Source of the DNA: Psammoneis japonica
Taxonomy: Eukaryota
Assembly (NCBI GenBank): GCA_008632985.1
Contig: QPGO01000025.1
Span: 372,001-436,000 of the forward strand
Direction: 5' to 3'
Length of the DNA stretch: 64,000 nt
Both the position numbers and the translations under genes were made by a program. Each line of letters begins with the position of its first letter. The stretch's first letter is position 1. This document shows positions 8,247 to 33,469 of this stretch, in pieces. The notes below the pieces were generated by a model. The model saw only the letters and a program-made list of their open reading frames with translations. It was not told where the DNA came from and did not search any database.

Positions 8247-8275
8247 CTGTAATTACAGTCGATTCAAAGAACTGG

Positions 8276-8491
8276 ATGGAGACTAGGAACAATACAAACA
8301 AATTGACTAAACGTGAGAAAAGAGAACTACGCGCAAGAGCAGCGGTTTGGGCCATTGAGCACCAGAAACAAGTGCAACAACGCAAACGACACGAACAGAA
8401 TTTGGCGAGCCGAGTGCATCATTTGGAGTCAAAGGTAGAGTCCCTGGAGAGGACTATTGAACAATTGCATTCCCTTTTTCATGATGAGTGA
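8276..8491 (+). CDS. Small upstream ORF of element 1 (basic region plus coiled coil, 71 aa)
   Basis: ATG-initiated, overlaps the gag start in another frame, and is homologous to 22128-22352 in element 2. Confidence 0.6.
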   Translation: METRNNTNKLTKREKRELRARAAVWAIEHQKQVQQRKRHEQNLASRVHHLESKVESLERTIEQLHSLFHDE

Positions 8492-11400
8492 ATCGTTGAA
8501 GGAGCCTTGCATTGGCTATGAAGCTAAATTTGAGCATTCTGACTTGGAGGAAGTGAAATTGACCCAATCGCATGATGACGGTAGCACTCGTACAAAAAAG
8601 TGTCCGCGTTTTGATGGCACTCATGGTGTTGAAGCATTGTCATTCGTTGAGGATCGTTTTCGTAAAATTGCTGTGAAATTGGAGCACACCACTGGCGAGG
8701 AGTTGTTCGAAAATTTCGAGGAAGTGCTTGCGGATGCTGCAGAGGACAAGTGGGCGAACTTGACCAATGCAATTGACGATGCCGATAAAACTGTCGAGCG
8801 TTTTGATCAGGAAATCAATCGTTTTTACTTGTCTTATTGTGACAATGAAGCGCGTGATACGATGATTGAACATTTGCCAACTTTGAAAAAACCACTCAAA
8901 TCTGAAGTGCAGGCGCATGCAGATCGCATGGAAACCTTGATTCGGTGCTCCAACAAACTTCCAGGAAACACTCCTCAAGTCAACGAAGCTCAGAAGAAAA
9001 AGATGACATTCGACAGCTTTCCTCGTCGGTGGCGTGAGATGTGCACTCGAGCAGGACGGGCGACAGCGAACGACACTCTCGCTGAGATCATCAGTCATGT
9101 GAACAACGAGAAATCTTTTGCTGACAAGAGCAGCAACAAGAAGCAGGACAAGAAGAGGAAAAGCAATGGTGCTTCGTCTCAAGCTTCAAGACACTCTCGT
9201 GGCAACAGTGGCAGAACAGATCCAGAATCTAGATGCCCGGTGCACACGAATCACGACCACAAGTGGAAGGATTGCATTTTGAATCCAGAAAGCCAAAACT
9301 GTCGACCGAGGTCCGACCGTGGCGGTCGTAGCGGAGGTCGTGGTGGAGGCCGAGGAAACTGCCAAGGCAGAGGACCCCAAGGTCGAGGCGGTCGTGGCAA
9401 CTTCCAAGGTCGAGGACGTGGCAATTGTGGCAATCAAGGAGGATGTGGAGGCCGAGGTTATGGCAATTGTAATGACTCCCAGAATTCTCAAGGGAATGGA
9501 TCCCATTGCCAAAATCAAAACGGCACCCAAGCCAACGGTGACACCCAAGGCTGTGGAAATCCGGCTGGAGCAGCTCCTCCTGGTGGCTGGCAAATGGAGT
9601 CACACCATTTTGATCAAGGAGGGCCTCGTGAGATGTGAGGTGGAAATGGATGCGATCAGAACGGTCGCACCCATCAAGGCCAACGAAGTTGGCACAATTG
9701 ACAAGGGACGGAAGTGCCCGAGTCAGAGCGTGTCGCTCAATCTTTTCATGTTTCATGTGATTGTGAAGAAAACACATGTTTTAATGTTGATGACAATGTG
9801 GGAGACCTGATGGAATCTCATGCTGTGAATGAAGAAAAATTGGGCGGCGTTTTGGAGTGCGCTGCACCAACCCCTAAAACTGCGACTCCCAAACCATTGA
9901 ATGTGGTGCCAACGACATTGATGGCGGCGCGTGCCATTCAAAATCAAGAGAGCAAGCGAGTGTCACGAGTGCCATTGGATTCAGGAGGTGCTGACACTCT
10001 TGTTCATTCTTGAGTTTTGCCGAAGGGAGCGAATCCGACCATGAGCGATGAAGGACGGTTGAGCTTTCAGACGGCAGACGGATGACATGAATCCTCCCGA
10101 TGCGTCATTATGAAGGACTTGACATTGCCAGAATTTGACAAGTCAAAACAAGTCGACAGCATTGCGGCTCAAGTTTTTGACACCCCATGCAAGCATGATT
10201 TAATTTTGGGACAAGACTTTTTGTCGAAAGCCGGAATCGTGCTTGATTTTCGATTTGGAGTGACAAAGTGGTTGGAAACGTCAATCCCAATGAAGCAATC
10301 CAATCATTGGAACTCAGTTCAGAATTGGTTGGATACACTGGAAGACGACGGAGAGGACGAAGACGATGAGGAAGCCTTCGGACAATCTTTTATGATGGAC
10401 GCCAAATGCGAGAAAGCATCATCCGCGAAAGTGGCGCAAGCTCAAACTCACTTAACTCAAGAACAACGTGATGAGCTGCAGGCAGTGCTTGAAAAGCATG
10501 AAACCCTCTTTGATGGAACGCTTGGTAAACATCCGCATGAGACTGTTCACTTGGAAGTTGATCCCAACACTGTTCCCTTCCATTCTAAGGCTTGCGAAGC
10601 ACCCAAGAGGGGTGAAGCCGTTTTTAAGAAAGAACTGCAACATCCATGTAATGTTGGCGTGCTGGAACCAGTGGGACCAACTGAATGGGCAGCCGGAACT
10701 TTTGTAACTCCCAAAAAGGATGGACAAGTTCGATGGGCATCCGATTTTCGAGAGTTGAACAAGGTGCTCAAACGAAAGGTCTGTCCTCTGCCGATCATTC
10801 AAGACGTTATTCACCAACGCTCGGGATGCAAGCACTTGACCAAGTTGGACCTCACCATGTTTTATTGTCATGTCGAGCTTGACGAAGAATCCAAGGATTT
10901 GTGTGCTGTTGTTGCTCCGTTTGGAAAATTTTGATGTTGTCGATTGGCCATGGGTTTGAAAACCTCTCCCGACATTGCTCAAGCCATCATTGAAAAAGTG
11001 GCAAAAGGAATCGATGTTGAAACTTACATCGATGACATTGCTCAATTTGATGATTCGTTTGATGCTCACATGCGTCGACTCGATGAGCTGTCATCCAGAC
11101 TAGAAGAGAACAATCTGAAAATTAACCCACTCAAGTGCGAATGGTGTGTCCAAGAGACGGATTTTTTAGGCCATTGGCTCACGCCTGCAGGAGTCCGACC
11201 GTGGAAGAAGAAAGTGGAAGCGGTGCTACGAATGCAACCACCTAAAACTGTGACGCAACTACGATCGTTTGTCGGTGCGGCAACTCATTGTCGCAACATG
11301 TGGCCTCGTCGCTCACACGTGCTCGCTCCACTCACGAAGTTGACAGGCAAGAGCAAATTGGAATGGACCCCTGAATGTCAACGAGCCTTTGAAGATGTGA

Positions 11401-13196
11401 AAACCTTGATGCTGGACGACACCCTTTGGGTCCACCCGAATCATGACAAGCCATTCCACATTTGTGCTGACTCTTCGGACTGTCAGATGGGAGCCGCAAT
11501 TGTGCAAGACGGGAAACCAGTGGCTTGCTGGTCCCGGAAACTCAGCGCAGCACAACAGAACCACTCTGCGATTGAAAAAGAATTGTTGGCGGTGGCAATG
11601 TGTTTCAAAGAATTTCGAAGCATGTCATTTGGAGCTGACTGCACTGTTTTCACGGATCATAAAAATCTCACCTTTCGTGCGCTCAATTCTCAACGAGTTC
11701 TCAGGTGGCGACTCTTCTTGGAAGATTTTGCCCCAACTTTCGAATGCGTTGATGGCAAAGATGATCTCTTGGCGGATTGTTTTTCAAGATTGCCGCGTGT
11801 GGACCCTCCTGCGGAAGGGAAGTGTGCTCCCAACAAGGGCAAACTGATTGATTTTAAGGCGATCGACCCTGCCATGCTGCCGCATGAAGAAGAACTGGAT
11901 GACCAAAACCGTGTGTCTCATTTTTCCTGTCGTCGTGAAGAACCATCTCCATTTTACTCTTCTGTCGTGGACGACCCCGAATTGTGTGAATCATTTTTGA
12001 ACCATCCTTCTCTCAAGGAAATGCAAAACCCTGCAACCATGCAACGAATTCAAGAATGCCAATTCGTCGACGTGGAGCTGAACAATGTGCGACAACAACA
12101 TCCAGAACGCTTCGTTGTGGAATGTGTGAATCAGCGTCCTGTAATTTGTTGTCGTGCTCGACCGAATGATCCTCCGACTGCATGGAAAATTTGTGTTCCA
12201 ACGGCGTTGCTGCACGACATCATACGATGGCATCACAGGATTTTGGGACATGCAGGAGTGCACCGAATGCTTTCCACTGTTGGCGCACATTTCTGTCATC
12301 CTGCCCTTCGTCAATCCTGTGAAAGATTTCATTGTGCTGATTGTCAACATTTGAAAACTTTGGGCCCTGGACATGGGGACCTGCCTGAACGGGAAGCGCC
12401 TTTGTTGCCATGGACGGAAGTTGCGGTTGACCTCATCGGTCCCTGGAAAATTGAAATTCAAAACCATGAAATCGAATTCAACGCTTTGACTTGTGTTGAT
12501 GCCGTTTCGAATGTGACTGAACTCATTCGCATCGACAACAAAACCTCGTCTCACATTGCTTGACAATTTGAAAATTGTTGGTTGTCTCGTCATCCTCGTC
12601 CCAACCGTTGTGTCCATGACAATGGTGGAGAATTCATTGGAGAGGACTTTCAATTGTTATTGCAACGAGCAGGAGTGGAAGATGCTCCGACTGCGTCGCG
12701 AAATCCACAAGCCAATGCGGCATGCGAGCGTGTGCATCAAACTGTTGGAAATGTCTTGCGCACTTTGCTTCATGTTTATCCTCCACAGAATGTTGAGCAG
12801 GCTAATCAACCAGTGGACAATGCATTGGCAACCGCCATGCATGCAATGCGATGTGCGGTTTCTCGTGCTCTCAAGATTTCACCCGGTGCCATGGTTTTTC
12901 AACGTGACATGATTCTTGACTTGCCGGTCCCAGCCGATCTTGCTGCCATTCAAGAACACCGACAAGCGATTGTTAATGCGAATCTCCGTCGAGCCAACGC
13001 TAAACGCCGATCCTACGATTTTCAAGTTGGCGGACAAGTTCTACTCAAGGCTGTCGACCCAACCAAGCTCGAGCCACGAGCTCACGGTCCATGTCCTGTC
13101 ATTCAAGTGCACGCTGACGGCACGATTATGGTCCAACGTGCACCTCATGTGACAGAACGATTGAATATTCGTCGCGTCGTACCGTATCGTACCTGA
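8481..13196 (+). pseudogene. gag-pol of element 1 (Gag, aspartic protease LDSGG, RT YIDD, RNase H, integrase), one frame interrupted by TGA stops
   Basis: ORF pieces starting 8457, 9714, 10110, 10944 and 12582 share one frame. Motifs PLDSGG, DFRELNK, ETYIDD, TDHKNL, VDLIGP/HDNGGEF. Pol stops are TGA at positions consistent with CGA (10011, 10932, 12561). Confidence 0.93.
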
Positions 13197-13309
13197 GGTT
13201 AAGGGTTTTCTCCCCAACATTTGGGTTTCCCTTCTCTCCTCATCCATTGGAATTTAAATTTTTTTGAGTCCCGCATGATTCTCGACACTCGAATCATGGA
13301 AGGGAAGAG

Positions 13310-13471
13310 TGCAGTGTCTCGCACCTTATTTTTCTGATATATAGTATTAATGAACCTATTAGATATAACGGAAGCCGTTGTAACGGGCTTCGCTGAAAGC
13401 GACCCTCGTTACCTCGGTCTTTCGCTCACAATTTTGTTATCACTGAAGTCTTTATCTCGTTAGACCTTGCA
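13310..13471 (+). repeat. 3' LTR of element 1
   Basis: Follows the PPT, is identical to the 5' LTR and is followed by TSD TGGCC. Confidence 0.97.
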
Positions 13472-13761
13472 TGGCCAAGGCTGGCTCACTTTCAATTTTG
13501 TCAGCAGACGGTGACGGACAAGAGTTGGTATTTGGCATGTCATGGCACACACAATTTAGAAACGGTTTCAGCGTCACTGACGTCGGTGACGGTGATTGTC
13601 ACCGACATGCACAGTTGTGAAACCGTCCTCGAAAGAAAGGTTGAAATGGAACGAAAACCTTTTTCAAACAAAATTGGCAATTTGAAACACGTCGTGTTTC
13701 CACGCTGTCAAGCTACAAATTATTCACAAACAAATGTCAAAGGAAGTTTGCTGCAACAACA

Positions 13762-14718
13762 ATGCCAAAGACGTCAACCGAGCGCACGAGGAAGTGGAGG
13801 GCCCGTAAAATCGAGAGATTGGGACTGGGAGAGTACAAGAAAGATCGCAGGCTTGAAGGCCGTGAGTATCGCGAGAGGAAGAAGGAAGAAGCAAATGGGA
13901 CTTCAAAAATCCTTGCCGCTGCCAAGGAGCTTCTGAAGGACCAAGGGAAGGAGCGTGGAAACGTTCTGGAGAGCCAAGCGAAGGAGCGCAAGTAGGAGCG
14001 CAAGCTTTTTGTGAGATTGATTGGTGCGAAACCGACCGCAAAGAAGAGCCACGGACGCTATCATGATGAGGGTTCGTTGTCGGATGGTGAGATTCGAGAG
14101 TACAAGCATGAACCCATCTTGGATGAAGAGGAACACTTGGACGATGACCAGCACGAACCCGCCTTGTTCGACGAAGAGAAATGCTCGGACGACGAGGAAA
14201 CTAGTGTCGGCAATGTTGGTAGTTACAACCGTCGCTGGAAACAGGGTGACTCGATAATAAGTTTGCCCTTAACCGAGCGTTCTCGAACTGTGTGGATTGA
14301 TCGCGGAAATGATTCGGCCCTCTCTATTATTGGAACGAAGATTGTCCAAGAGGCCTTCGAAACACACATTCCAACGTTGAAGAAAAAGGACGGTCTCGGT
14401 AAGATCTTAGAACAAGTGGAAGATGACTTGCCCAGAAAGGTTCTTAAGAGCCTGCGGTACATTCTAAAGCATCGCAACCATCTTGTGCACAAAAAGTGGT
14501 TGTACCAGCTGGAAAACCGTAAAAAATATGAGAAGCAGTTGAAGTTCGTCCTGGAAAAACTCTGCCCAAAGTGGGAATTGTGTCACGACAACCCCGAAGC
14601 GGAACGTCTACGACAAGAGCTCGATGATGCAAACGCAGAGATTGAGCGGCTCAGGCAAGAGCTATATGATGCCGAACACTGCCGACCGACAAAGCGCCAC
14701 CGCCGGGAATACTATTGA
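13762..14718 (+). CDS. Hypothetical protein with putative HEPN/DUF4145-like domain; in-frame TAG at 13993
   Basis: ORFs 13762-13995 and 14011-14718 share a frame, and the stop lies within a short duplication (aaggagcgcaag/taggagcgcaag). C-terminal part reads GLGKILEQVEDDLPRKVLKSLRYILKHRNHLVH (RxxxxH). Normal TA content. Confidence 0.55.
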
Positions 14719-15637
14719 ACAATACTCTACAGATTTATTGTCAGCGACATGGCGCTTCCGAAGGGATACTGCTTCTATTGTAATTAACTTCTATAACTAT
14801 CATATCTGGAATAAGTTGTAATGCGTGTACGCACAGTAAAATATAAAACGAGTGTAGCTGCATAACGAATCGTTTACTCTTTTGGGGCATCGGGTTGGAC
14901 ACTAGGATCAGACGCCCATCATGGCGTTTTTCCGTTGTGAGCTGATCGTTTTCAACTCGTTTTTGGACCCGTCGTCTTTTGTCTGGGTGAATTCCCCGCA
15001 AAAGAGGCTGCCTCAACCGACCCAAAACGCGGCGCAGGCTCGGATTCTTTCCCCTCGGTCCCGTGTAAATACCGGCGTGATCAGGATAAATCCAATCGAT
15101 GTAATTTTCCTACTTGTTCATGCAATCCAGGGGCCTGGTATGCAAGTGGAAAAGCAGCATGCACACGGGCCCCAAACATTGAGCGCAAGATTTCGCAAAC
15201 CTCTAAAAATCAAAATAGACCCTTCCAAACAACTGAGCAAAAGCCAATAAACGAAGGGTGCGACGCGGGGGCATGCGGTATTGTGTTTTCGCATCCGGTT
15301 CCTTCTTATAGATGGGGATTAAAGTTCCAGTTCCGCTGGTGCTTCAAAATCCTCCTGAGCTTTCAATTCATTCGAATCACACACGGAGCCTGCCAAAATC
15401 AGGCATCTTAGTGCACATTCTTCTTGCTCACTGTGGTCCTGCATGGCAGACGCGACATTGAATACGAAGCATTTATCAAGGATTGCAGGGGATACTTCCA
15501 AAGCGATGGTCTCAGCGTCATGTATTGGTTGTTGAAAGGGATGAGTAAATCTCGGCAAACACTGCTTGACCCCCAACGAGCTCAAGACGAGCTCATTTAG
15601 AACATCAATGACAAAGGATCATGATGTATCTTCGCAT

Positions 15638-17350
15638 CTAACTGTCGTCCTTTCCACACAGAGTGCGTTTCCCTTTTGTCGGGTTAGATTGGTCCACTAG
15701 TTTTGTAAGGCGAAACGACGCAGCAAACCAACAAGCTGAAACACAACTAGATGCCATTGCAATTTGACAAAACATCCCAGAATCGGAGCCGTAGGCAGCT
15801 GTAATTGCAGAGAGACTTACAGCCATAAACGACTTGCCCAGTCTGTTTGCAAATAGCCCAACGATTTCCTTTCCGACGAATCTACTTTCGTAATCAAGCG
15901 ATACATATACCTATGCATTCACAACAACACGGTGAGAAAAACCGGGAGATGACAATTTATTATTCCAGTACGAATTCAGGACGGCGACGGTATCTGTCAT
16001 TTCTACTCACCATCTCGTTTGCTACTCCACGGAGCGAATACTCCATGGTCTTCATTGCAAAGAAAGAAGCGGTTATAAGCTCCAAAGAAACAGTAGGTTG
16101 CAAGCCAAGGAACATGGTGAAACACATCATCACAAGAGGCATGAACAGCCAAATTGATCGGGTGTCAATGTGCTTAACCAGAAGCGGAAGAGCGAAAAAC
16201 TGAATGACGCCGCTCACTCCGTTGATCCATGCGTAGCAATTCCCCGTCCATGCAGCTCGCTTCTCATCATCCGAAATACTCTCTTTCACTTGCATCATGT
16301 ACAAGAACGAAATCAAAGACGACAAGCATTGACAGCTCAAGACCTCAGAGCAAAGTGCGCCGAGTACGGGCACTCTACGAAACAAGCGGCGGGCAGTGAG
16401 AAGCAAGGATTGATCGGCACTACTGCTCTTTTTCTTTGAACTCTTTTGTTCCGTTACTTTCCGTGGTTCGAAGCCATACTACAACACGAAATATGTTTTC
16501 AGAAACAAAACTATTCAGAATGGAAGGATTGTATTGCCATACAAACAGTACTCAGAAAACTTACCTGATCCGCAACATTGTAGGCCCAATCGCCGCACAT
16601 GGCACTTAGAATCAATAGAGACGCTGCTGCATACAATAATCCTCCCAATCCCATCGTAGCTACCAACGGCGCAACCGAAAAGGCAGCCAGAGTCGATGAA
16701 ATGGACGCAATTCCCGCAATGAGCGAAAGCCAGACAGCTCCCTCTTTGCGGCTCTGTAAGGAACCAAGAAAGGACCAGTGTTGTGTGTACAACAGCTGCA
16801 CGAACCCACTTTGTAGCACATACATGAAAAACAGAGCTACACGGGATATCGAATGGTAAATGTTTCGCTGGGACGCTGCCTCGCTGGGAATTAAATCATC
16901 ATCAAGGTACTCATCAATAGTAGTTAGCATCAACCCACCACATGAGAACATGCAGGCACAAAATAACGTGCTGTATCGAAGAGCCTTTTGAGGACCACTT
17001 TTGCCCAGAATCTTTGTGTATATCATTAGCAAGCATATCGAGAAAGGAGCGACGCAACTACGCACACAGGGAAGATTCGAGGAAGAGATGACCGTGAGTA
17101 AGAAAATAGCCCGCAGCATCACAGATTGTACCAGCATACGATCAAATGTGAATAGCACTCACCCGGTCGCAAACGGAAGCGCAGAAGGATTAGAAAAGCC
17201 CGTACGATGGGATGTGAACATGGCCAAGACTGAACTTCTAGCAAACTCGTATCCAGAAAAATGAAGGGCACTCGCCAACGTCATGGCGATAACGGATTGA
17301 GCCTTTGGATGTATCGACACATTGTACATTACTCCCCTTGAACGCTTCAT
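15638..17350 (-). CDS. TLC/NTT-like (ATP/ADP or nucleotide translocase-like) membrane transporter, 4 exons
   Basis: Spliceable hydrophobic ORFs: approx. exons 17350-17163, 17057-16565, ~16478-16011, ~15910-15638 with GT-AG introns. Motifs GYEFARS, QHWSFLGS, KTMEYSLRGVANEMVYVSLDYESRFVGKE...NRLGKS. Start codon uncertain. Confidence 0.75.
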
Positions 17351-17729
17351 GGTTCGATAACGTCTTACGGTAGGCGCACTCAACGCACTGTATTCATACC
17401 ACGGCTGTCTTTCTCTCCATCCTTGCAGGCCCCCACATCATTTTTTCCCGCGCTTTTTGCTTTCTTTGAAAAAGGGGGGAATTAAATTTTATTAAAAGCT
17501 ATAATATTGAATATATTTTTGAATAACGCAATGCGAGCCATCGGTAATCAGGGAATGCCGAGTGCAAAATAAACGTTTGCAGAGCGTTCCGTGTTATTGG
17601 TGTTCAATCATTGAATCGAAGTTATTCTCCTCGCTGTCTTGTCGCTGTCGTGATTTGTGAAATATATTTCAGGGAAGAGCAACGAGGAACCAAAACACCT
17701 GCGCCGCTTCACAAAACGCGAACAGCATA

Positions 17730-19088
17730 ATGCCCGACAACATTCATCTTGCAATCGCCATGGCGAAGAAAGGCGAGATGAATCCAGAGCAGTTCAAAAA
17801 GGCAATGCCTGATTCTGCGGCTCGCCTTAGAGGCAACTTTGATCGGTCTATCTCGGAACCGCCGTTTGATCGCATCTACGCTGTCACATTGTCTCAGCTC
17901 GAGTATCCAGATCTCATGGACAAGACGCTACCTTTCAAGGCCAACGTTGGCACCCCGACAGTAATGAAAGAGGTCAAAGAAATCCTTTCGTTGGTTTCTG
18001 TCCTAACTTGTATGGATGCTGCTGTGTACGCAAATGCTCCATATCAAGCACTGTTCTACCTCTCATATGTAAAAAATGTGCAGCAGAAATGCGAAATCTT
18101 TGGTGTTGGTGGTGATATGATTGCCGACATATATCACTCTGCTTTCGTCAAGACTGCATATGAGTTTCAAGAGGAAATTGAGAGTGGAGGCCGGATGAGA
18201 CTCGGCGATGTATGTGATTACCTCAATGATAGCGATGGCTTTCGCGACCAGTTCATTGATTACCTCGAACACGCTGTCACCCTCCCAGACAATCTGACGA
18301 CGGTCGAGGAACTCATTGAACACGCGAAGGAATACCATTCGGCACAGGCTGTTACGCAATCTTTCGTCAAGTCTGTCAGAGTCATTAAGGAGTTTCCAAA
18401 CTACTTTTCATGTCTTCAATGCTGGGTCTGCGGAGCTACTGAGACAAAGAACTGTTCCGCATGCAAGGTTGCAGCTTTCTGCGGCCGACCCTGTCTCCGG
18501 AAAGCTTGGAAGAAGAATCACAAGGTTCATTGCTTCCATTACAAGAGGGTAATGGATTATGTAGAACGACAATGCAGACGCATTGAACAGGCCTTGATGG
18601 AGAGCTTTCTTGCACCGGGAATCAGTTTGTTACAGCCGAATCAGCTCTTTGATTATACGATGGTCTGTACTCAAGCGTCGTTTATTGCTCAAGATCCCGG
18701 AGCTTCGCTACAGGAAGACACAGTTTCGATCAACAACTTCTACAAGAATCTCCTGCAAGTTGAGAAGGACGATTCGGCTTTTCGTTAGCTGTTTAAGCGC
18801 GGAACTAAAGTGGACAACAATGCGGCTATTCACTCGTTGGTCAATGTGTGTGTCAGTCTCATGTACAATGGGAGCCCTCCGCAGACACTTCCATTTCCAA
18901 AGGTAACTCGAAACACGTTCTTGAAGAAATACAAGGATGCGTCAGGCTTTGTCAAGCAATCGGAGGAAATGGTGAAGGCTTCAGTGATTGAGGACCTCAA
19001 GGCGTTCTTTACATCCGAAGACTACAGTCAGCTTTCCGTCGAGGAAGTCAACCATCGTTGTCAAGAGGTAAAAAAGGCGGGTATCTGA
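17730..19088 (+). CDS. MYND-type zinc finger protein (in-frame TAG at 18786-18788; frame continues to 19088)
   Basis: CWVCG...CSACKVAAFCGRPCLRKAWKKNHKVHC motif in a 352-aa ORF with an in-frame downstream continuation. Confidence 0.75.
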
Positions 19089-19298
19089 TAGCCTCTCACT
19101 AGAGAAGTCCTTGCATTATAGCGACGGGACTGGGGCTTCATGCAAGCGAACGACAAAGATAATAGCAATGCCAGAAAAATACTAAATTATGAACAAGTGT
19201 ATACATAGGTACACGCGTTTGAAACTGACTGATAACTAGTAGTACACAGAAATCTACGTTAATCCTTTTTCCAATACTCAACACTTGGACTTTGAGGC

Positions 19299-22097: not shown

Positions 22098-22127
22098 CTG
22101 TAATTACAGTCGATTGTAAAGAGCTGA

Positions 22128-22352: not shown

Positions 22353-23706
22353 AGAACCGTGCATTTTGCATGCTGTGAAATTTGCTCATTCGGATTTGGA
22401 GCTTGCAAAATTGACTCAATCGCACGATGATGGCAGCACGCGTACGAAGAAGTGCCCTTGTTTTGATGGAACTAGTGGCATTGAAGCGTTGTTGTTCATG
22501 GAAGATCGTTTTCGTAAACTGGCTGCAAAACTTGAATTCACTGCAGGCGAAGAACTGTTTGACAATTTCGAGGGGAAGTGTTGACAGATGCCGCTGAAGA
22601 CAAATGGTCCAATCTCACCATGGCGATTCCGGATGCGCAGAAGATGGTGGCTCGTTTTGACCAAGAATTGGCTCGTTTTTATTTGTCATGTTGTGAAACT
22701 GAAGCACGTGACACGATGATTGAATGCTTGCTCTCTCTTAAAAAGCCACACGATGTTGAAGTGCAGGCACGTGCGGATCGAATGGAGACCTTGGCACGAC
22801 ACACGAACAAGTTGCCGGGAAACAATCCAGTTGTCACTCAGAACCAGAAGAAGAAGATGATCTTTGACAGCTTCCCTTTGTCATGGCGCGAGATGCACAC
22901 AAGAGCAGGACGCACGATTGGAAATGATGCATTGGCGGAAATTGTCGCGCACATGAGCACGGAGAAATCATTTGCAGATGGGAACAAGAAGACTTCGAAG
23001 AAGCGCAAAGACGGACAGTCGAAAGGTGGTGGCTCTGCCAAGAAGAAAGGCAATCGCATTGACCCAGAATCTCAATGTCCTTTGCATGCTCACAATCACA
23101 AGTGGAAAGATTGCGCCATGAATCCCGACTCTAACAACTGCCGTCCAAGAACTGATCGCGGAGGTCGCGGGTGTGGTGGCCGTGGCGGTCGAGGTGGCGG
23201 TCGAGGTGGAGGTCGTGGTTGTGGCGGAGCGCAAGGTCGTGGTTGGCAAGGCCGTGGCTGTCAAGGTCATGGTGGTGGCCGAGGAAACTGCGGTGGTCGC
23301 GGAAAACACAACTCTGGCGGCAACAGCGGCGAGCATCATGATGATGGTGGCTCTTGCATGCAACATCAAAACGACACCTGAACCAATGCAGATGGCGGCG
23401 GTTACGGCAATCTGGCCAGAACGGCTCCTCCCAATGATTGGTCTGCTGAAAGCCATCATCTTGATTTGATGGGAGGGCCTCGAGAGCATCGAGGTTGAAC
23501 GGGAAGTTTTCGACCTGGTGGTCGCTTCTTGGGACGCGGTCGACACTCACCCAATGAGCTTGAAGAGCTGTCGTCCGAGTGTGTCACTCCTGATTCTTGC
23601 ATGTTTGATGATTGTGCTGACTGCATTGATGATTGTTGTGTGTGTGCTGCTGATGCATTTGATGATGACGATTTCGGAAATTACACTGTGAATGACGAAG
23701 ACGATG
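22330..23706 (+). pseudogene. gag and gag-pol junction of element 2 (frameshift near 22572)
   Basis: ESLKEPCI...LTQSHDDGSTRTKKCP as in element 1; CPxHxHxHKWKDC knuckle-like motif and RGG-rich tail. Confidence 0.88.
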
Positions 23707-24907
23707 TGCAACATGCGTTGTCATGTACGTGTCATGTGTGTGTGTCCATGTGTTAAATAAAAGCACATTTCAATCGCACGTCAATCGTGGGTTCGTACGA
23801 AGTGCAGATCAGTCACACAGAAGTGATCGGATGTCGAGAATCGCAAATGCGATCGCACGATGATGTTGACATCTTGTGTGTCAACATCAATCGAATCCGG
23901 ACAATCTGTCGTCACGATCATGTTCTCCGAAAGGCCTTTTGTCTGTAGGAGCAGTGCAAAAGGTTTAGGCTGTTGAGAACCCGTTCGGAGAAACCCAAAG
24001 TGATTGCGCAGAAATGATTCTCATAATTTTCACCTTTTGAACTTCACTCTACTTTCGTTTGCACTCGTTCTTCGAGCACAGTGCATTGTGCACACACACC
24101 ACAGAAGGTGATGAGTTCAAGATGAAGCTTTCACCTCATGTGGCCAATGCCAAGACTTCGTCAAGGCAGGAGAAAATCGTCCCTCAACCGCTGGAATCGA
24201 ACTCCGAGCCGAAGAGCCTCAAACCGAGCCAGCACCTCAAGATGGAGCAATGTTTTCATCCCGAGAAGAAGGACAGCCGCACCCACACCATCAATGTTGA
24301 GCACTGCAAGAAACAAGGTGTCCCCAAGTTCATCAAATTTCTCAAGAGCTGCGATCAACTTCTGGTGGGCCAGAATGTCAGGAAGCAATCTGATGAGTTT
24401 CGTCTCATGCGTGTGTTGCTCCAAGGAGATGCTCTACGTGCCTTCGAGAATGCGGCAGCGAACCTTGAAGACGAATCTGCGGAAGGAAGCTTTGCAACAT
24501 GCGTTGTCATGTGCGCACTACACACGTACATCTACACATTAAACAAAAGTGTGTTTCAATCGTACGTCAATCGTGGGTTCGTACGAAGTACAGATCAATC
24601 ACACAGAAGTGATCGGATGTCGGGAATCGCAAATGCGATCGTACGATGATGTTGACATCTTATGTGTCAATGTCAATCGCATCCGGACAATCTGTTGTCC
24701 CGATCATATTCTCCGAAAGGCCTTTTGTCTGTAGGAGCAGTGCAAAAGGTTTAGGCTGTTGAGAACCCGTTCGGAGAAACCCAAAATGATTGCGCAGAAA
24801 TAATTCTCATAATTTTCACTTTTTGAACTTCATTCTACTTTCGTTTACACTCGTTCTTCGAGCATGGTGCATTGTGTGTACACACCACAGAAGGCAATGA
24901 GTTCAAG

Positions 24908-26062
24908 ATGAAGCTTTCACCTCATGCAACCAACGCCAAAACTTCGTTAAGGCAGGAGAAAATCGTCCCTCAACCGCTGGAATCGAACTCCGAGCCGAAG
25001 AGCCTCAAACCGAGCCAGTGCCTCAAGATGGAGCAACGTTTTCATCCCGAGAAGAAGGACAGCCGTGCCCACACCATCAATGTTGAGTGCTACAAGAAAC
25101 AAGGTGTCCCCAAGTTCATCGAATTTCTCAAGAGCTACGATCAACTTCTAGTGGGCCAGAATGTCAGGAAGCAATCTGATGAGTTTCGTCTCATGCGCAT
25201 GTTACTCCAAGGAGACGCCCTACGTGCTTTCGAGAATGCGGCAGCGAACCTTGAAGATGAATCTGCGGAAGGAAGCTTCGAGAAATGCCTGCAACATCTC
25301 ACGAGGCATGTGTTTCCCAAGAACGCACTTTCGGTGCAGAAACGTTATTTGCGTCGTGATCTCAAGAAGCCGGAGTCCATGAAAGTACGCGAAATTGCTG
25401 CTTGGGTCCAGGAAGTCAACGAAGACCTCAAGTTCTATCCTCCCTTTGGGAAGGAACAGAAGATCGAGGACGACGAGCTCAAGGACATCCTCTTCAACCT
25501 TGCACCTCGAAAGTGGCAGCGTCAGTCGACCGTCCAGGGTTTCGAAATTTTGAAACATACCTGTGACGAGCTGGTTGAGTTCTTGGAGCGCCTGGAGGTC
25601 GCAGAAGACATGTTTGATGGCATTCATGCCAAGGCTGATGGCAGTGGCGGCACTGCATCAAAAGCCAAGAGTGGTTCCCAACGTGGTTCCAAAAATGGTC
25701 ACCAACATGGTGCCGAAAAATCTCAGTCCGAGAAGTGGTGCATTTTGTGCGAGAAACCCACTCATAACACGGACAAGTGCTGGTCGATCAAAAGACTTGC
25801 GAAAGAACGCCTTGGGAACTATGAACCCGACCCGAAACGGCGCCGTTCAAATGGCAATCGCACGTGGTCTCGTCGCGACAACGACAACGCCGCTCGCAAA
25901 GAAGAGTTGAATGCCATGGCGATCCAAGCAGTTCAAAAAATGCTCAAAGCGAGTTCTTCGAACAATGATGAAAAACACAAGAGCAAAGATTGTGATTCTG
26001 ACACCCTTGACGAGGAAAATCATCAGTTTGAAAAAATGACGCGCAGTGATTCCGAGGAATGA
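24908..26062 (+). CDS. Gag of element 3
   Basis: Open 384-codon frame with LLQGDAL, QKRYLRR and CILCEKPTHNTDKC zinc knuckle. A truncated duplicate of its 5' part lies at 24122-24492. Confidence 0.85.
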   Translation: MKLSPHATNAKTSLRQEKIVPQPLESNSEPKSLKPSQCLKMEQRFHPEKKDSRAHTINVECYKKQGVPKFIEFLKSYDQLLVGQNVRKQSDEFRLMRMLLQGDALRAFENAAANLEDESAEGSFEKCLQHLTRHVFPKNALSVQKRYLRRDLKKPESMKVREIAAWVQEVNEDLKFYPPFGKEQKIEDDELKDILFNLAPRKWQRQSTVQGFEILKHTCDELVEFLERLEVAEDMFDGIHAKADGSGGTASKAKSGSQRGSKNGHQHGAEKSQSEKWCILCEKPTHNTDKCWSIKRLAKERLGNYEPDPKRRRSNGNRTWSRRDNDNAARKEELNAMAIQAVQKMLKASSSNNDEKHKSKDCDSDTLDEENHQFEKMTRSDSEE

Positions 26063-29000
26063 CTTGCACCGCAAGAGGAGTCTTGCGCTCTGCTGGATGT
26101 TGGGAAGCCCAGAAAAAGGGCCAAAGTAATTCATGCTAGTCCAGCAGTCGTCGCCCATATGAACACTTCATTGGGTGAGGCAAAAAATAAGCCTCTGCGC
26201 GTTCTCCTCGATGGCGGAACATCGTCAACCATAATTTTGCGCAAATTCACGCGGAAACTCAGAACAAAAGTGTCCGCCACCAAACTCTGGGAAACCAAAG
26301 GAGGGCTTTTCACGACTGACAGTCGATGTAAGATCCAATTCACCTCACCCGAATTTGACAAACACAAGATGATTGAAACAACGGCACATGTTGACAACTC
26401 CCCTTCTTCTTCGAGTCGTTGTGACATGATCATGGGACGCGACTCAATGTCAAGTCTTGGGACAACATTGGACTTCTCGAATGAAGAAATTAAGTGGGAA
26501 GATGCAACTGCTCCTGTGAAGAATGTTGATGCACTCTTCGATGCCGATGTTTTTAAGTTGATTGCCAATCACATTGAGGAATCTCATGCAGTGATTGGTC
26601 TCAATGACAGGGTCAATCGGATCCTTGACTCAGACTGTCACGCTGCAAACCTCAACAATGTGACCGCAGCAGCTGCTCATCTAACTCCTGAAGAGCAGAA
26701 GCAGCTGAGCTTCCTCTTAAAAAGATTTGAAAACCTTTTCGATGGTTCTCTGGGCAAATGGACCGGGAAACCGGTGGATTTAAAGTTGAAATCGGGCGTG
26801 AGTCCGCATCATGCCAAACCATTTCCCATGCCACAAGCCTTGGAGGCGACTGCTCGTAAGGAGGTTGAAAGACTGTGCAAGTTGAAAGTCTTAAGAAAAA
26901 TAAATTGTTCTGAATGGGCGGCTCCAACCTTTGTTCAACCCAAGAAAAATGGCAGAGTTCGGTTCTCACCCGACTTTCGAGAGCTGGGTAAGAGGTTAAT
27001 TCGTGCTCCGTTTCCTCTGCCCAACATTCAGGACATGCCACAGAAGCTCGAAGGCTTCATGCATGCAACGTCCCCAGATTTAAACATGGGATGCTGTCAC
27101 ATCGAATTGACGCTGCATGCACGTCGCTTGTGCACGATCGTCATGCCTTGGGGCAAACATGAGCACTGTAGACTCCCGATGGGAATCTGTGGAGCTCCAG
27201 ATGTTTTCCAAGAGCACACGAGTGAGCTCATGGCAGGTCTGGAGTTCGTCAGAACTCACATTGACGACACATTGTGTCTTGCAAAAGGTGATTTTCAAGA
27301 CCACCTCAAGAAGCTTGAAACGGTGTTCTTGCGCCTAGAACAAGCCGGATTGAAGGTCAACGCCGAGAAGTCCTTTTTCGCTAAACCCGAAGTGGACTGT
27401 CCAGGCTTTCATGTCACCCGCAAGGGCATCAGTCCGATTCCAAAAAAAGTAGAAGCGATTCACGCGATCGCAACTCCTAAAACTCGCAAGGAATTGCGAC
27501 GCTTTATCAGTGTGATCAACTGCTGTCGAGACATGTGGCCTCGACGATCTCATGTTTTAGCTCCTTCAGCCAAACTCACTTCTGCCCAAGTAAAGTGGCA
27601 ATGGACCGAAACAGAACAAAAAGCCTTCGAAAATGTGAAGCGCATCATCTCCAAAGACATGCTGTCATCACACCCGAATTTTAATGTGCCCTTTGAGACA
27701 TGTGCCGATGCCAGCAAATCTCAATTGGGGGCGGTTGTTACTCAGAAAAACCGACCAATTGCCTTCTACAGCCGCAAGCTGAATGGAGCGCAGACGCGTT
27801 GTGCTGCAACGGAAAAAGAGCTGTTGTCCACAGTGGAGACGTTAAAAGAGTTCCGAAATGTGCTGTTTGGCCAACAGACAAACATGCACACGGATCACAA
27901 AAATCTCACACACAAAAATTTCACAACGGACAGAGTCATGCGTTGGCGTCTAATAAAATGGAAGAATGCAGTCCCAAAATAACATGCCTTCTACCCAAGT
28001 GAAGTGGCAATGGACCGAAACAGAGCAAAAAGCCTTCGAAAATATGAAGCGCATCATCTCCAAAGATGTGCCATTGTCACACCCGAATTTTAACATGCCC
28101 TTTGAGACATGTGCCGATGCTGGCAATTCTCAATTGGGGGCGGTTGTTACTCAGAAAAACCGACCAATTGCCTTCTACAGCCGCAAGCTGAATGGAGCGC
28201 AAACGCGTTGTGCCACAACAGAAAAAGAACTGTTGTCCACAGTGGAGACGTTAAAAGAGTTCCGCAACACACTGTTTGGCCAACAGATGAACATGCACAC
28301 GGATCACAAAAATCTCACACACAAAAATTTCACAACGGACAGAGTCATGCGTTGGCGTCTAATGAAATAGAAGAATGCAGTCCCAAAATGACATGCCTTG
28401 AGGGCAAGGCAAATGTTGTCGCAGATGCGATTAGCCGACTTGCTATGAAGAAAATAGAACCCATGGAAACCCTCAGCACAGAAGAGCTGGCTGAAAAGGT
28501 CCCACCAAAATCCTGCGACAATGTCTTTCCGTTAAATTACAAAGTTCTTGATTATGAACAAAAACGGGACAAAGACATTCTCTCCCAATTGTCAAATAAG
28601 ACGTTTCATACGAAGACTTTTCGTGGAGGCGAGCGAGACCGGTTGCTCACATGTCATAAGGATAAAATTGTCGTCCCGAGGACGTTACAAAAGGCAGTGA
28701 TAGATTGGCATCACACGCACCTTCTTCACCCTGGCATAAATCGAACAGAAGAAACAATCTCACAACACCTGTGGTGGTCCACCTTACGTGAAGACATACG
28801 AAAATACGTGTCGAGATGTGAGACGTGCCAAAAATTCAAAAAGAAACACAAGAAACATGGACATTTACCTCCTAAGTGCGCAGAATCCGTGCCATGGGAA
28901 CGACTGTGTGTGGACCTTGTTGGGCCATACAAAATACGTCGTAAGGGAAAGAAAAAACCCCCAGTCCTGAAATGTTCAACTATGATCGATCCAGCAACTG

Positions 29001-29674
29001 GATGGTTTGAAGTTGTGGAAATCCCAAACAAGGAGTCCACAACTGCAGCTGGACTGCTAGAACGAACATGGTCAAGCAGACATCCTTGGCCATCGTCAAT
29101 TGCATGTGACCGTGGAAGTGAGTTCATCAGACACCAATTTAGAGAAATGGTGCAAGATGATCATGGCATTGAAGTCAAGCCTGCAACTGCATGAAATCCA
29201 CAAGCAAATGCAGTTGTTGAACGTGCACATCAAGCACTGGGGAACATGCTCCGCACATTTGATTTGCAACACACACCTCTGGACACTGAGGATCCTTTCG
29301 CTGGAGTGCCATCAGCGGCAGCGTTTGCGGTGCGTTCTGTGCATCACACCACTGCGCAAGCTACACCAGGACAACTGGTCTTCAATGGAGACATGACATT
29401 CAACGTCCAACATGTCGCAGACTGGAAACCAATCCAGCAGCGAAAACAAGAAATCACAAATAAAAACAACGCTCGAGAGAATGCTCGACGCACTCCTTGC
29501 ACGTGCAGAGCAGGAGAAAAGACACTGCTCGAGAAAGACTCGCAAAAATTAGAACAGCCCTGTGTTGGACCGCATGCAATGACAACGGCACATGCCAATG
29601 GCACAGTGCAGATCAAACGCGGCAACGTCATTGACACTGTCAACATTCGTCGAATGGCGCCGTTTGACGACTGA
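26063..29674 (+). pseudogene. pol of element 3 (PR LLDGG, RT with THIDD, RNase H duplicated, integrase)
   Basis: ORFs 26159-27982, 27966-28370, 28109-29194 and 29246-29674 with Gypsy motifs; frameshift caused by a 409-bp tandem duplication. Confidence 0.92.
27582..28399 (+). repeat. 409-bp tandem duplication of the RNase H region
   Basis: 27582-27990 repeats at 27991-28399, with CTT microhomology at the junctions. Confidence 0.93.
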
Positions 29675-30079
29675 CTCTAATGTGCAATTGGGGAGGCGAG
29701 TGCAACATGCGTTGTCATGTGCGCACTACACATGCATGTCCACATGTTAAATAAAAGTGTGTTTCAATCGCACGTCAATCGTGGGTTCGTACGAAGTGCA
29801 GATCAGTCACACAGAAGTGATCGGATGTCGAGAATCGCAAATGCGATCGTACGATGATGTTGACATCTTGTGTGTCAACATCAATCGTATCCGGACAATC
29901 TGTCATCACGATCATATTCTCCGAAAGGCCTTTTGTCTGTGGGAGCAGTGCAAAAGGTTTGGGCTGTTGAGAACCCGTTCGGAGAAACCCAAAGTGATTG
30001 CGCAGAAATGATTCTCACAATTTTCACCTTTTGAACTTCATTCTACTTTCGTTTGCACTCATTCTTCGAGCACAGTGCA

Positions 30080-33000
30080 GATGTGGGACTTGAGTGTGCT
30101 GCACCAACCCCAAAAACAAAACCAATTGAACCATCAAATGTGGTCCCCACAACCTTGTTCGCGGCGCGATTCATTCAAGATGAGGAAAGCAAGCGCGTGA
30201 TGCGGGTGTTGCTTGATTCCGGTGGAACCCATTCAATGATTCATGCTCGGGTGTTGCCGGTTGGAGCGGTTCCAGCATTGGAAGAGACAGGACCAATTCA
30301 TGCGAAGTTCAGGACAACAGCGGGAGAATTCGAATCAACTTGTTGTGTTCGACTGCAGGACTTGGTGCTCCCTGAATTCGACAAGATGAAACATGTTGAC
30401 GGCATGCATGTGCATGTGTTTGACTCACCCTGCCAATGTGACATGATCCTTGGACAGGACTTCTTGGTGAGAGCGGGTGTCACATTGGATTTCGAGCACG
30501 GAATTGTCAAGTGGCTCGGTTCAAGCATTGCGATGAAGCCGAGGAATCAGCGGACTGGCACCCAGCAATGGCTCGATGATTTGACTGATGAGCCAGCCAA
30601 TGATGATGAAGTGTGGGACAGCTGCATCCTCGATGCAAAGCATGAGGAGATGTCCCTTCTGAAGTGGCTTCAGCTCAGAAGCATCTTGCTGCCGGACAGC
30701 AAGAGAAATTGCGCCTCGTGTTGGAGAAACACACTGCTCTTTTTGATGGCACCCTTGGCAAGTGCACTGGCGAAAAAGTTCACCTTGACATTGATCCTGA
30801 CGCCGTTCCGTGCCATTCTCGAGCGCATGCAGTGCCGCACAATGATCTCGAGACTTTCAAGCAAGAATTGGATCACTCAGTGGCTCTTGGCGTTCTTGAA
30901 GAAGCCGGAACTTCGGAATGGGCTGCAGGTGCCTTTGTTCAGCCGAAGAAAGATGGTCGAGTGTGGTGGCTCAGTGATTTTCGGGAACTCAACAAAGCCC
31001 TCAAGCGCAAGGTTTGTCCCTTGCCGATCATTCAAGATGTGTTGCAAAAGAGAGCAGGGTGCAAATTTCTTGCAAAGTTGGATCTCTCAATGATGTGCTG
31101 CACGTTTGAACTGGACGACGATTCCAAAGATCTGACGACAATCGTGACACCCTTTGGAAAGTGTCGATGCTGCTGTCCAGCAATGGGTTTGAAGCCGGCT
31201 CCGGATGTTGCGCAACACTTGATTGAGAAAACTGTGCATGACTTGGACGTTGATGCATGTGTTGATGATCTCGCTCAATTTGATGACAATTTTGACATTC
31301 ACCTTGGTCGTCTCGACAAACTCCTGCAACATTTGGAAGAAGCTGGATTTAAAGTGAATCCTTTGAAATGTGAATGGTGTGTGCAGGAAACAGATTTCCT
31401 TGGGCATTGGCCAACTCCGACTGGAATTCGTCCGTGGAAGAAGAAAGTGGAAGCTGTTCTGCGAATGCAACCTCCGGAAAATGTCAAGCAGCTTCGTTCG
31501 TTTCTTGGTGCTGTGACACACTGTCGCAACATGTGGCCTTGGCGTTCTCACTTGTTGAAACCCTTGACAGATCTCACAGGCAAAGGCTCGTGGACGTGGA
31601 CAGCAGATTGTCAGGCGGCGTTCGAAGAGATGAAAGCAGCTCCAGCGGCCGAGACGTTGATGGCGTGTCCGAATCATGACAAACCCTTCCACATCTGTGC
31701 CGATGCCAGTGATCACCAAATGGGTGCAGTGATTGTACAAGACGGAAAACCCATTGCATGCTGGTCTCGAAAGCTGAACGCGGCGCAACAAAACTGCTCG
31801 ACGATCGAAAAAGAACTCTTGGCCGTTGTCATGTGCTTCCGCGAATTCCGAACGATGCTCCTTGGCGACGACTTGCACGCATTCACCGACCACAAGAACC
31901 TCACCTTTCGCACCTTGAATTCACAACGTGTGCTCCGTTGGCGCCTCTTTCTGGAAGACTTTGCCCCTCAATTCCATTGTGTCGAAGGCCGCTTGAATGT
32001 CTTGGCTGATTGTTTTTCTCGTTTGCCTTGCATGGATCCTCCCTCTGAAGGGAAGAGCTTGGCTCTGGGCAAAGGAACTGTTGTTGATTTTGCTCCACTC
32101 GATTCGAAGTTGGTGCCGAGTGAGGAACCATCCGAAGTCGAGGATTTCCACGATGAGGACTTGGAGCTCGGCGCATGCCGATTCAAGTGTTGTCGCAACA
32201 TTGAAAATGAAGTCCACTCACACTTCTTCTCTTTCTTTGTTGATGAGCCGAAACTGTTCGATTCCTTTTTGAATCACCCTGCGATGCAGGAGATGCAAAA
32301 TCCAATGACGTTACAATGGATTCAAGAGCACCAGTTCGAGGACCAACAATTGAACCAGATGCACATTGCTCACCCTGATCATTTCCTTTGTGGAATGTGT
32401 GAACAATCGACCGCTTGTGTGTTGTCGCATGCGACCAAATGATCCTCCAGGACAGTGGAAAATCTGTTTGCCGACTGCGCTTGTGCCCGACATCTTACGG
32501 TGGTGTCATCTCGTCCTTGGCCATGCCAGAAGCCAGCGCATGCGTGAAACAATCCAGGCTCATTGTTGTCACCCTGGGTTGCGTCGTGTGTGTGATGAAC
32601 ATTCTTGTGCTGATTGCCAACGCAACAAAACTTTGGGTCCTGGCTGTGGAGAGCTGCCCAAATGAGAAGCTCCATTGACTCCCTGGTTGGAAGTGGCAGT
32701 TGACCTCATTGGCCCATGGAAAATCAAAGTGCCGAATGGAGAGATTGAGTTTCGGGCATTGACCTGCATTGATCCTGTCTCTGATCTTGTTGAACTGGTG
32801 AGAATTGAGAACAAAACTGCTCGACATGTTGCCAACCAATTCGAAAACTGCTGGCTTGCACGCTGTCCCAGACCGAATCGATGCATCCACGACAACGGCG
32901 GCGAGTTCACTGGGTGTGAGTTTCAGATGCCATTGCAACAAGCCGGAATTGATGATGTGCCGACTGCTTCATGCAACCCTCAAGCCAACGCCATTTGTGA

Positions 33001-33469
33001 ACGAATGCACCAGACTGTCGGCAATGCATTGCGCACGCTCATTGCTTCTAATCCACCTCAAAACCTTCAGGGTGCAGCCAGCCTCGTGGACGATGCTTTG
33101 GCAACTGCAGTGCATGCAACCCGCTGTGCTGTTTCCCGTTCCTTGCAGATTTCACCAGGTGCCATGGTGTTCGGACGTGACATGATCTTAGACATCCCAG
33201 TGCTGGCGGATTTGTTGACGATTCAAGGCCATCACCAGATGCTGATCAACGACAACTTGCGATGAGCCAATGCCAAGAGAAGATCCTGCGATTGTCAAAT
33301 GGGTGATCAAGTTCTAATCAAGTCCATTGAGCCATCCAGACTCGAGCCTCGTGCTCATGGCCCTCATCCTGTTGTTCAAGTGCATGCAAATGGCACACTC
33401 TCGGTTCGTCGAGCTCCTCATGTGGTTGAGCGCCTCAACACTCGGCGCCTGATTCCTTTTCGCGGTTGA
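30080..33469 (+). pseudogene. pol of element 2 (PR, RT with CVDD, RNase H, integrase) with frameshifts and stops
   Basis: LLDSGG, DFRELNK, DACVDD, TDHKNL, VDLIGPW, HDNGGEF; colinear with element 1 pol. Confidence 0.93.

Follow-up and report, generated by a model that had tools for sequence, protein, structure and literature searches.

Near-complete loss of tyrosine from Ty3/Gypsy proteins of the diatom Psammoneis japonica is probably a coding read-out of TpA mutation in integrated repeat DNA

In a 64,000-nucleotide (nt) stretch of the genome of the diatom Psammoneis japonica (assembly GCA_008632985.1, contig QPGO01000025.1, positions 372,001 to 436,000 of the forward strand; hereafter the window, numbered from its first letter), three Ty3/Gypsy long terminal repeat (LTR) retrotransposons have lost almost every tyrosine that their relatives conserve, mostly to cysteine or histidine. 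This loss is probably, with a likelihood put at roughly seven in ten, the coding read-out of a process acting at the DNA level, which turns TpA dinucleotides of repeat DNA into TpG or CpA after integration and spares the neighboring genes. A first-pass annotation of the window had described Tyr-to-Cys/His replacement in conserved retroelement motifs and ascribed it to change at TpA; the observation holds, well beyond what chance would give, and that interpretation is right at its core.

The three elements (E1, E2 and E3) all lie on the plus strand between 8 and 34 kb. Their LTRs, 5-bp target-site duplications and Pfam domain order (Asp_protease_2, RVT_1, RT_RNaseH, Integrase_H2C2, rve) are those of Ty3/Gypsy elements, and their named homologs are reverse transcriptase (RT) polyproteins of the diatoms Nitzschia, Mayamaea, Epithemia, Thalassiosira and Pseudictyota. 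E1 (8085 to 13471) is bounded by an LTR pair and the target-site duplication TGGCC, and its pol region, with RVT_1, RT_RNaseH and Integrase_H2C2 domains, matches positions 2 to 1062 of the homolog profile described below in a single frame (9909 to 13193, score 1426). E2 (21934 to 33757, target-site duplication ATGTC) is kin to E1, with a nucleotide identity of about 66-71%. It is interrupted by the nested E3, its own parts being 21934-23705 and 30080-33757, and its pol carries frameshifts, with switches of frame at about 30650 and 32400. E3 (23706 to 30079) has LTRs of about 380 nt and carries two tandem duplications on the plus strand, one of the LTR and leader (786 nt, 23707-24492 repeated at 24493-25278) and one of the RNase H region (about 410 nt, 27579-27990 repeated at 27988-28399).

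Tyrosine loss was counted against a profile built from the best 120 homologs of the RT-RNaseH open reading frame (ORF) of E2, of which 117 were aligned over 1063 positions and matched to the six frames of the window; three Tyr-poor sequences (P0117, P0019 and P0084, with 0.6-1.1% Tyr) were removed beforehand on composition. A column counted as consensus-Tyr when it was covered by 50 or more sequences and at least 60% of these carried Tyr; 24 columns qualified, giving 72 cells over the three elements. These 72 cells hold 3 Tyr, 38 Cys and 21 His, distributed as Y2 C11 H9 F1 W1 in E1, Y0 C18 H5 W1 in E2 and Y1 C9 H7 F5 W1 S1 in E3. In the same columns of the 117 homologs, 2219 of 2593 cells are Tyr, and the other 374 are F206, H65, W30, E29, L16, C4 and 24 of other kinds. 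Cys or His thus fills 59 of 72 element cells versus 69 of 2593 homolog cells. Other conserved residues are retained at about 80-95% in E1 and E2. Kept and replaced residues number 2 and 22 at the Tyr columns versus 361 and 87 at other conserved columns in E1 (Fisher p=3e-13), 0 and 24 versus 372 and 75 in E2 (p=5e-18), and 1 and 23 versus 268 and 174 in E3 (p=2e-8). The ratio of Tyr to Cys plus His, proposed in the first-pass annotation as a comparison of elements and host, is 0.76 both in five host ORFs (1565 amino acids) and in the 117 homologs, versus 0.07 in E1 pol, 0 in E2 pol (zero Tyr in 1105 amino acids) and 0.07 in E3 pol.

Among intact relatives, the three closest (57-60% identity) keep Tyr at 21-22 of the 24 columns. 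A close sibling protein of E1 was not found among the public proteins searched, where the best match is 58% identical. The first-pass annotation would have been refuted by intact family members with the same Cys and His residues, and to the reach of the databases, in which no relative was closer than 58-60% identity, that condition is answered in its favor. The three sequences set aside from the profile are predicted proteins of 468-844 amino acids with Cys or His at 9-15 of the 24 Tyr columns, so that the same erosion is present in other public records, annotated as intact.

All nine motifs quoted in the first-pass annotation are present where it placed them. The RT catalytic motif, YxDD in the consensus, reads YIDD in E1 (Tyr codon at 11025-11027, still TAC and preceded by T), HIDD in E3 (27257-27259, now CAC) and CVDD in E2 (31258-31260, now TGT). 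KVCPLP stands at 10776 and 31009, GCKHLTKLDL at 10824, PIACWSRKL at 31750, QNCSTIEKE at 31789, and MHTDHKNL at 27884 and again at 28293, the RNase H duplication of E3 having doubled the HTDHKNL motif. Seven of the nine serve as examples of Tyr loss. HTDH does not, as its column has Y in 53 and H in 34 of the 117 homologs, so that His is a natural variant there. GCDH (at 50079) also fails as evidence: it occupies residues 169-172 of a Tyr-poor ORF (49575 to 50393, plus strand; Y3, C16, H18), outside residues 37-117, the sole stretch that aligns weakly to EXO1 (PDB E 0.04; Pfam XPG_I E 0.0059, below the cut-off). The motifs had also been called disabled. Replacement of Tyr is observed, but loss of function would be a further step, and E1 retains YIDD.

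The direction of change was read at conserved columns differing from the consensus, along the single-base path from the consensus codon to the present codon. With the homologs as outgroup, 114 of 128 A:T>G:C replacements fall in TpA. A>G follows T in 71.1 of 80.1 cases (E1 24.3/26.3, E2 27/29, E3 19.8/24.8), and T>C precedes A in 43 of 48 (E1 15/16, E2 10/11, E3 18/21), which gives 39.3, 37 and 37.8 TpA-context transitions in E1, E2 and E3, respectively. Changes of CpG type are fewer (4, 11 and 9.5), made up of G>A after C (4, 7 and 6) and C>T before G (0, 4 and 3.5). Each element also shows 31-53 transversion paths, which stem from its ordinary divergence from the consensus, the relatives being about 50-60% identical. 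The ancestor at the 24 columns was Tyr, the consensus of 117 intact relatives, and not Arg changed at CpG, as had been proposed from the motifs. The same proposal held that polarity could be had without an outgroup; the direction it gave is correct, but it depends on the consensus of the family, in effect an outgroup under another label.

In 20 columns both E1 and E2 have Cys or His, and in 10 of these the two elements disagree as to which; independence predicts 10.5, which marks the residues as separate changes from an ancestral TAY codon and not as inherited. Both strands were struck, with Cys:His at 38:21 overall, 11:9 in E1, 9:7 in E3 and 18:5 in E2, where alone the bias is clear (binomial p 0.011). 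The ORF of a DDE_Tnp_4 transposase on the minus strand is dominated by His and the plus-strand E2 by Cys, and both biases correspond to A>G on the plus strand of the window, which hints that strand bias follows the chromosome, perhaps its replication, and not transcription.

Over the whole window, the observed/expected ratio (O/E) is 0.30 for TpA, 1.38 for CpA and 1.43 for TpG, and the loss of TpA is confined to repeats. In 2-kb bins, the genes between 14 and 22 kb have a TpA O/E of 0.60-0.63 and the repeats one of 0.02-0.31, and the lowest bin (30001-32000) holds 3 TpA. The host-gene control block (14500 to 21900, TpA O/E about 0.6) lies between E1 and E2 and contains zf-MYND (17661-18785, plus strand), HSP20 (19302-20072, minus) and MFS_1 (20326-21720, minus) genes recognized through Pfam. 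In E1 the depletion is limited to roughly 8600-13000 (0-4 TpA per 200 nt); its LTRs and about 350 nt inside each are spared, amounting to about 500 nt per element end. Its 5' LTR (8085 to 8246, 162 nt) is 100% identical to the 3' LTR (13310-13471), and each has 15 TpA and is not depleted. From about 22200, the TA-poor state is continuous through E2, E3 and an unidentified repeat into E4 (36023 to 40725, plus strand), a degenerate relative of E3 with LTRs 91.6% alike. E4 lies within this same unbroken block and was left out of the Tyr-column count, its profile alignment being too poor (score 19). The process is not limited to retroelements, since the DDE_Tnp_4 ORF (52076 to 52942) has 0 Tyr, 18 His and 4 Cys, with only 3 TpA.

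Some stretches around these elements merit separate description. To the right of E1, beyond its target-site duplication, 13600-14200 is TA-poor (2-4 TpA per 200 nt) and holds ORFs without a Pfam match, which could represent spill-over into flanking DNA or an older repeat. Within E4, elsewhere poor in TA, 38400-39600 forms a 1.2-kb island of almost normal TpA content (O/E 0.72, with as many as 19 per 200 nt) that has little TG and 40% GC and is homologous to the pol of E3; it may have escaped, or TA may have been restored there by another process. The bins 1-2000, 44001-46000 and 56001-58000 have CG O/E of 0.10, 0.24 and 0.19 with TA O/E of 0.02-0.05, and CA and TG O/E of up to 1.98. Such values suggest repeat DNA of greater age, where the loss of TpA and that of CpG have both been completed.

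The TpA sites that survive in the elements show how the process depends on neighboring bases. With host density used as a proxy for the ancestral composition of the elements, the ratio of surviving TpA in transposable element (TE) interiors to that in host DNA is 0.08 for RTAY, 0.21 for RTAR, 0.26 for YTAY and 0.57 for YTAR, where R is a purine and Y a pyrimidine (chi-square p 5e-9). A single rule covers the four classes: adenine followed by a pyrimidine, on either strand, is the preferred target. Surviving TpA has T before or A after it at 93 of 130 sites in TEs versus 214 of 525 in host DNA (p 3e-10). All seven Tyr codons surviving in the depleted zone of E1 are preceded by T, and for E1 and E3 pooled, T precedes 9 of 12 surviving versus 13 of 59 mutated Tyr codons (p 8e-4). 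As the Tyr codon of YIDD in E1 lies in TTAC, a slow context, its survival needs no selection. Full sparing of TTAA, suggested by a TE/host ratio of 1.0, was considered and rejected, as TTGA is enriched in TEs (10.3 versus 6.1 per kb). A TTAA in an LTR of E2 has also become TCAA, and the flank rule is therefore kinetic, not absolute.

A second and different decay is superimposed on the loss of TpA. Change of TpA to TpG or CpA removes TAA and TAG and creates no stop, so it acts by missense only and leaves long residual ORFs. Counted in three forward frames, E2 has 108 TGA, 3 TAA and 1 TAG stops, and the host block 122, 77 and 63. All in-frame stops in pol are TGA, and 4 of 7 that align to the profile are at columns where Arg is commonest, including the two in E2 pol (columns 86% and 65% Arg). 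Since they are mostly at Arg columns, the breaking of frames is attributed to CpG decay and not to TpA erosion. At the Arg columns of E2, 8 of 31 have become stop, His, Trp, Gln or Cys.

A mechanism can be outlined from these features. The elementary step would be A>G on one strand or the other at a TpA within integrated repeat DNA. Both Tyr codons consist of TA plus a pyrimidine, the most sensitive context, which would make Tyr the residue most fully erased. The chemistry would be an enzymatic deamination of adenine in DNA by a putative enzyme, and its targeting would follow something like a chromatin domain, whose effect fades a few hundred bases short of unique DNA. Taken further, and as a tentative proposal that is rather less probable than its contrary, diatoms may possess a putative genome-defense enzyme that deaminates chromosomal adenine at 5'-TAY, is aimed at repeat chromatin and halts a few hundred bases before genes. 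Such an enzyme would be a natural DNA adenine editor and a functional mirror of repeat-induced point mutation (RIP); the elements it erodes would keep long frames, and the E1 family, which seems to go on multiplying with its TA-rich LTRs and cis-acting ends intact, would be engaged in an arms race with it and not simply killed.

The loss could instead be a by-product of heterochromatin without a dedicated enzyme, TpA in silent, methylated repeats mutating through a lesion, polymerase error or absent repair. The coincidence of TA-poor domains with repeat blocks that also show CpG decay agrees with this, as does the sparing of gene-side borders in E1 and in the 5' LTR of E2, which a chromatin-domain effect would give. 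Against it, the comparable mutation rate in the alga Bigelowiella natans, introduced further below, is reported to rise about 1000-fold in only some lines, as would be expected if the activity were regulated (Mettrop et al., bioRxiv 10.64898/2026.01.13.699255). Here the specificity of 114 in 128, the near-saturation (3 TpA in 2 kb) and a rule spanning four bases look enzymatic, and a by-product of this kind is unlikely.

The LTRs of one element are identical at integration, so differences between them date from their time in the chromosome. Those of E2 are identical at 150 of 168 positions. The 5' LTR (21934 to 22101), about 200 nt from the MFS gene, retains 12 TpA, and the 3' LTR (33593 to 33760), which adjoins further repeats, has none. 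Of the 18 differences, 13 coincide with those 12 TpA sites, where the 3' LTR has 7 TG and 6 CA products, one site having been hit twice to give CG. With the LTR of E1 as outgroup, the TA-rich block GATATATAGTATTAAT is common to it and the 5' LTR of E2, and the 3' LTR of E2 reads GACGTGTGGCATCAAT. The match of the E1 LTR to the 5' LTR of E2 makes TA the ancestral state and places the change on chromosomal DNA after integration. The double hit lies in a TATATA run (33621-33622, CG, versus 21962-21963, TA). Under a strict TpA rule the first hit would preclude the second, so that the two strands must have been changed in the same round unless the rule is not fully strict. In E3, the copies of the two tandem duplications are 91-93% alike; one pair has 71 differences, 18 of TA type and 41 of CpG type, and the other 30, of which 6 are of TA type and 19 of CpG type. 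E2, the older element that hosts E3, is near saturation, with 8 TpA in about 3.7 kb of its own sequence, and the younger E3 is less depleted.

These comparisons bear on editing before integration, in which an ADAR-like enzyme acting on RNA or an APOBEC-like enzyme acting on cDNA would leave copies that are born mutated. In favor of it are E1, whose LTRs are identical and interior eroded and which belongs to a multi-copy family (384 of 1761 aligned contig pieces at least 99% alike), the moderate sense-strand excess of A>G in E2 (18:5) and, as reported in the accessible text of the preprint cited above, the preference of ADARs for U 5' of the edited A (bioRxiv 10.64898/2026.01.13.699255). Against it, sense-strand T>C accounts for 43 of 114 polarized TpA events and for 21 Tyr>His replacements, which editing of packaged RNA could not produce. 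The LTRs of E2 differ at all 12 TpA sites, those of E1 are identical but unedited, tandem duplicates at one locus differ by TA-type changes, and the ORF of a DNA transposon shows an equal loss of Tyr. Pre-integration editing is accordingly improbable as the general explanation.

Several observations weigh against post-integration TpA mutation as the cause of all the Tyr loss, and most of them concern E1. It has identical, TA-rich LTRs, belongs to a multi-copy family and keeps YIDD. The family was surveyed by aligning public-run contigs of one sample, perhaps the source of the assembly itself, to 7800-13800. The alignment gave 1761 contig pieces, 384 of them at least 99% alike and nearly all from one run (a second run added only 3 pieces, in the flanks, and a third none), with a summed depth of 1387-4469 inside the element and 52-92 in its flanks, which indicates a multi-copy family. 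Of 586 variable places, 491 are transitions; the 40 best supported merge to 35 private sites, at which the window stands alone against almost every other copy. Among these 35, 15 have CpG in the other copies and TG or CA in the window, 4 have TA in the others and CA in the window, 5 differ at both bases (CA versus TG), TA is retained by the window but not by the other copies at 4 and CG at 1, and 6 are other changes. One of the four TA-to-CA sites is the His codon at 11562 (CAC), for which 9 sibling contigs have TAC (depth 2098 of 2275), a point in favor of change after integration. No other copy shares the stop at 12561, where they have CAA. Erosion in place from an unmutated master predicts that private sites are dominated by TA-type change, and with only 4 of 35 of this type, much of the erosion of E1 is probably shared with its siblings. 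Much of the TpA loss in E1 may thus be older than this copy, handed down by a lineage that was already eroded yet still propagating, and would then not have arisen at this locus. That lineage would have multiplied with help presumably given in trans, selection keeping the LTRs and other cis-acting ends rich in TA; alternatively, the border zones may have been protected in place, as at the 5' LTR of E2.

The remaining difficulties are of polarity and composition. Polarization by majority rule, applied to five LTR copies from E3 and E4, pointed in conflicting directions, with singletons such as G>A after T and T>C before G. It was dropped because independently struck copies converge on the same TG and CA states, the mixture being ascribed to such convergent hits. 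CpG decay adds to the same pool of TG and CA, and some Cys and His at Arg columns derive from it. The flank rule leans on host DNA as the stand-in for ancestral TE composition, and the enrichment of TTGA means that even TTAA is not immune.

A sequencing or assembly artefact, by which a modified base at TpA in repeats would be misread as TG or CA, is very improbable. The sequencing platforms of the assembly and of the main public run are not on record, and the contigs may be the same data. Contigs of the public run nonetheless reproduce the letters of the window, the three database proteins set aside from the profile show the same Cys and His, the choice between CA and TG is specific to the site and varies between copies, and the accessible text on B. 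natans gives the same signature in a mutation-accumulation experiment on another alga (bioRxiv 10.64898/2026.01.13.699255). That Cys and His are ancestral functional residues, or the result of an inherited TA-poor codon bias, is scarcely credible: C occurs at the YxDD column in 3 of 117 homologs and H is common at columns 423 and 789, but Tyr dominates all 24 columns in the 117 relatives and nearly all are kept in the closest, E1 and E2 are discordant at half of their shared columns, and the elements carry stops, a frameshift and duplications.

The pattern can be set beside other forms of mutation directed at mobile DNA. RIP, known in Neurospora and other ascomycetes, makes TpA from CpA and TpG, raises the AT content, creates stops and kills transposons in place. 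It has been described as C-to-T transitions in repeated sequences, in the portion of the source consulted (PMC6714961). The process in the window is similar in consisting of dinucleotide-specific transitions confined to repeats, with single-copy genes spared. In contrast to RIP, it removes TpA, raises GC and is unable to generate stops; the TpA enrichment characteristic of RIP is absent, and TAA and TAG codons are nearly so in E2. A-to-I hyperediting of the ADAR type acts on RNA, on one strand and before integration; A>G with T or U 5' of A is a common feature, whereas here both strands are affected and the LTRs of one element differ. APOBEC3 enzymes convert C to U on minus-strand cDNA before integration, which is seen as G>A on the plus strand. 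Deamination directed against retroelements, with missense or nonsense hypermutation of pol, would be the likeness; the differences are that change here is A:T>G:C at TpA, on both strands and after integration. These elements have also undergone the CpG decay typical of methylated transposons, which cannot explain the Tyr columns, where the ancestor was TAY and not CGY.

The closest parallel is hypermutation at TpA of integrated DNA of nucleocytoplasmic large DNA viruses and virophages in the chlorarachniophyte B. natans, reported in a recent preprint (Mettrop et al., bioRxiv 10.64898/2026.01.13.699255), of which a part forms the basis of this comparison. In mutation-accumulation lines, two integrated viral regions mutate at about 1000 times the genome rate, almost only by A>G and T>C and all at TpA; coding sequences poor in TpA are enriched for RT and DDE Pfam domains, and the authors propose a putative ADAT2-like adenine deaminase (bioRxiv 10.64898/2026.01.13.699255). 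As far as that text goes, the two cases share near-exclusive A:T>G:C change at TpA, on both strands and in foreign or repeat DNA only, with TpA scarce and CpA and TpG abundant. They differ in that B. natans belongs to the Rhizaria, its targets are mainly viruses and its rate was measured directly, whereas LTR retrotransposons and a DNA transposon of a diatom are affected here. Near saturation, concurrent CpG decay, the flank rule (RTAY before YTAR) and the sparing of borders go beyond what is described in the available part of the preprint. The main text, to the extent it was accessible, contains none of the words 'diatom', 'TTAA', 'trinucleotide' or 'flanking' (bioRxiv 10.64898/2026.01.13.699255). 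In the full-text literature on diatom transposable elements and TpA hypermutation, no such process was found described in diatoms, and the papers listed on TpA change and genome defense more widely concerned fungal RIP or were unrelated. In PMC9258296, 'hypermutation' refers to immunoglobulins only. The window adds a diatom, with transposons as the targets, to a kind of targeted hypermutation that was described only very recently.

Other features of the window complete the picture. A tandem array with a period of 56 nt, more than 99% identical, occupies 3577-4121 in TA-poor DNA, and the borderline Pfam match of its ORF to 'antifreeze beta roll' is probably an artefact of the repeat. The host FAA hydrolase gene (62407-63171) has its best named homologs in the diatoms Odontella, Leptocylindrus and Thalassiosira, with a top identity of 67%. 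In a representative protein library, the ORF of E3 belongs to a very large family (84,598 matches), which was not used in the conclusions.

The results have consequences for annotation and for enzymology. The ratio of Tyr to Cys plus His, together with consensus-Tyr columns, provides a simple, outgroup-anchored test for any annotated TE protein, and the erosion explains how long 'intact' predictions from heavily mutated elements enter databases, 3 of the 120 listed homologs being of this kind. Repeats poor in TA and in stops also yield spurious ORFs in six frames, as at 3202-4352, where frames are open on both strands. The flank rule and the missense-only nature of the change are fingerprints that could identify the enzyme, and builders of base editors would take an interest in one able to edit adenine of double-stranded DNA within a defined context. 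If the process is as proposed, a second and distant algal lineage (diatoms being stramenopiles and Bigelowiella a rhizarian) uses TpA-specific hypermutation against mobile DNA, which would make it a widespread eukaryotic defense and not the curiosity of one species.

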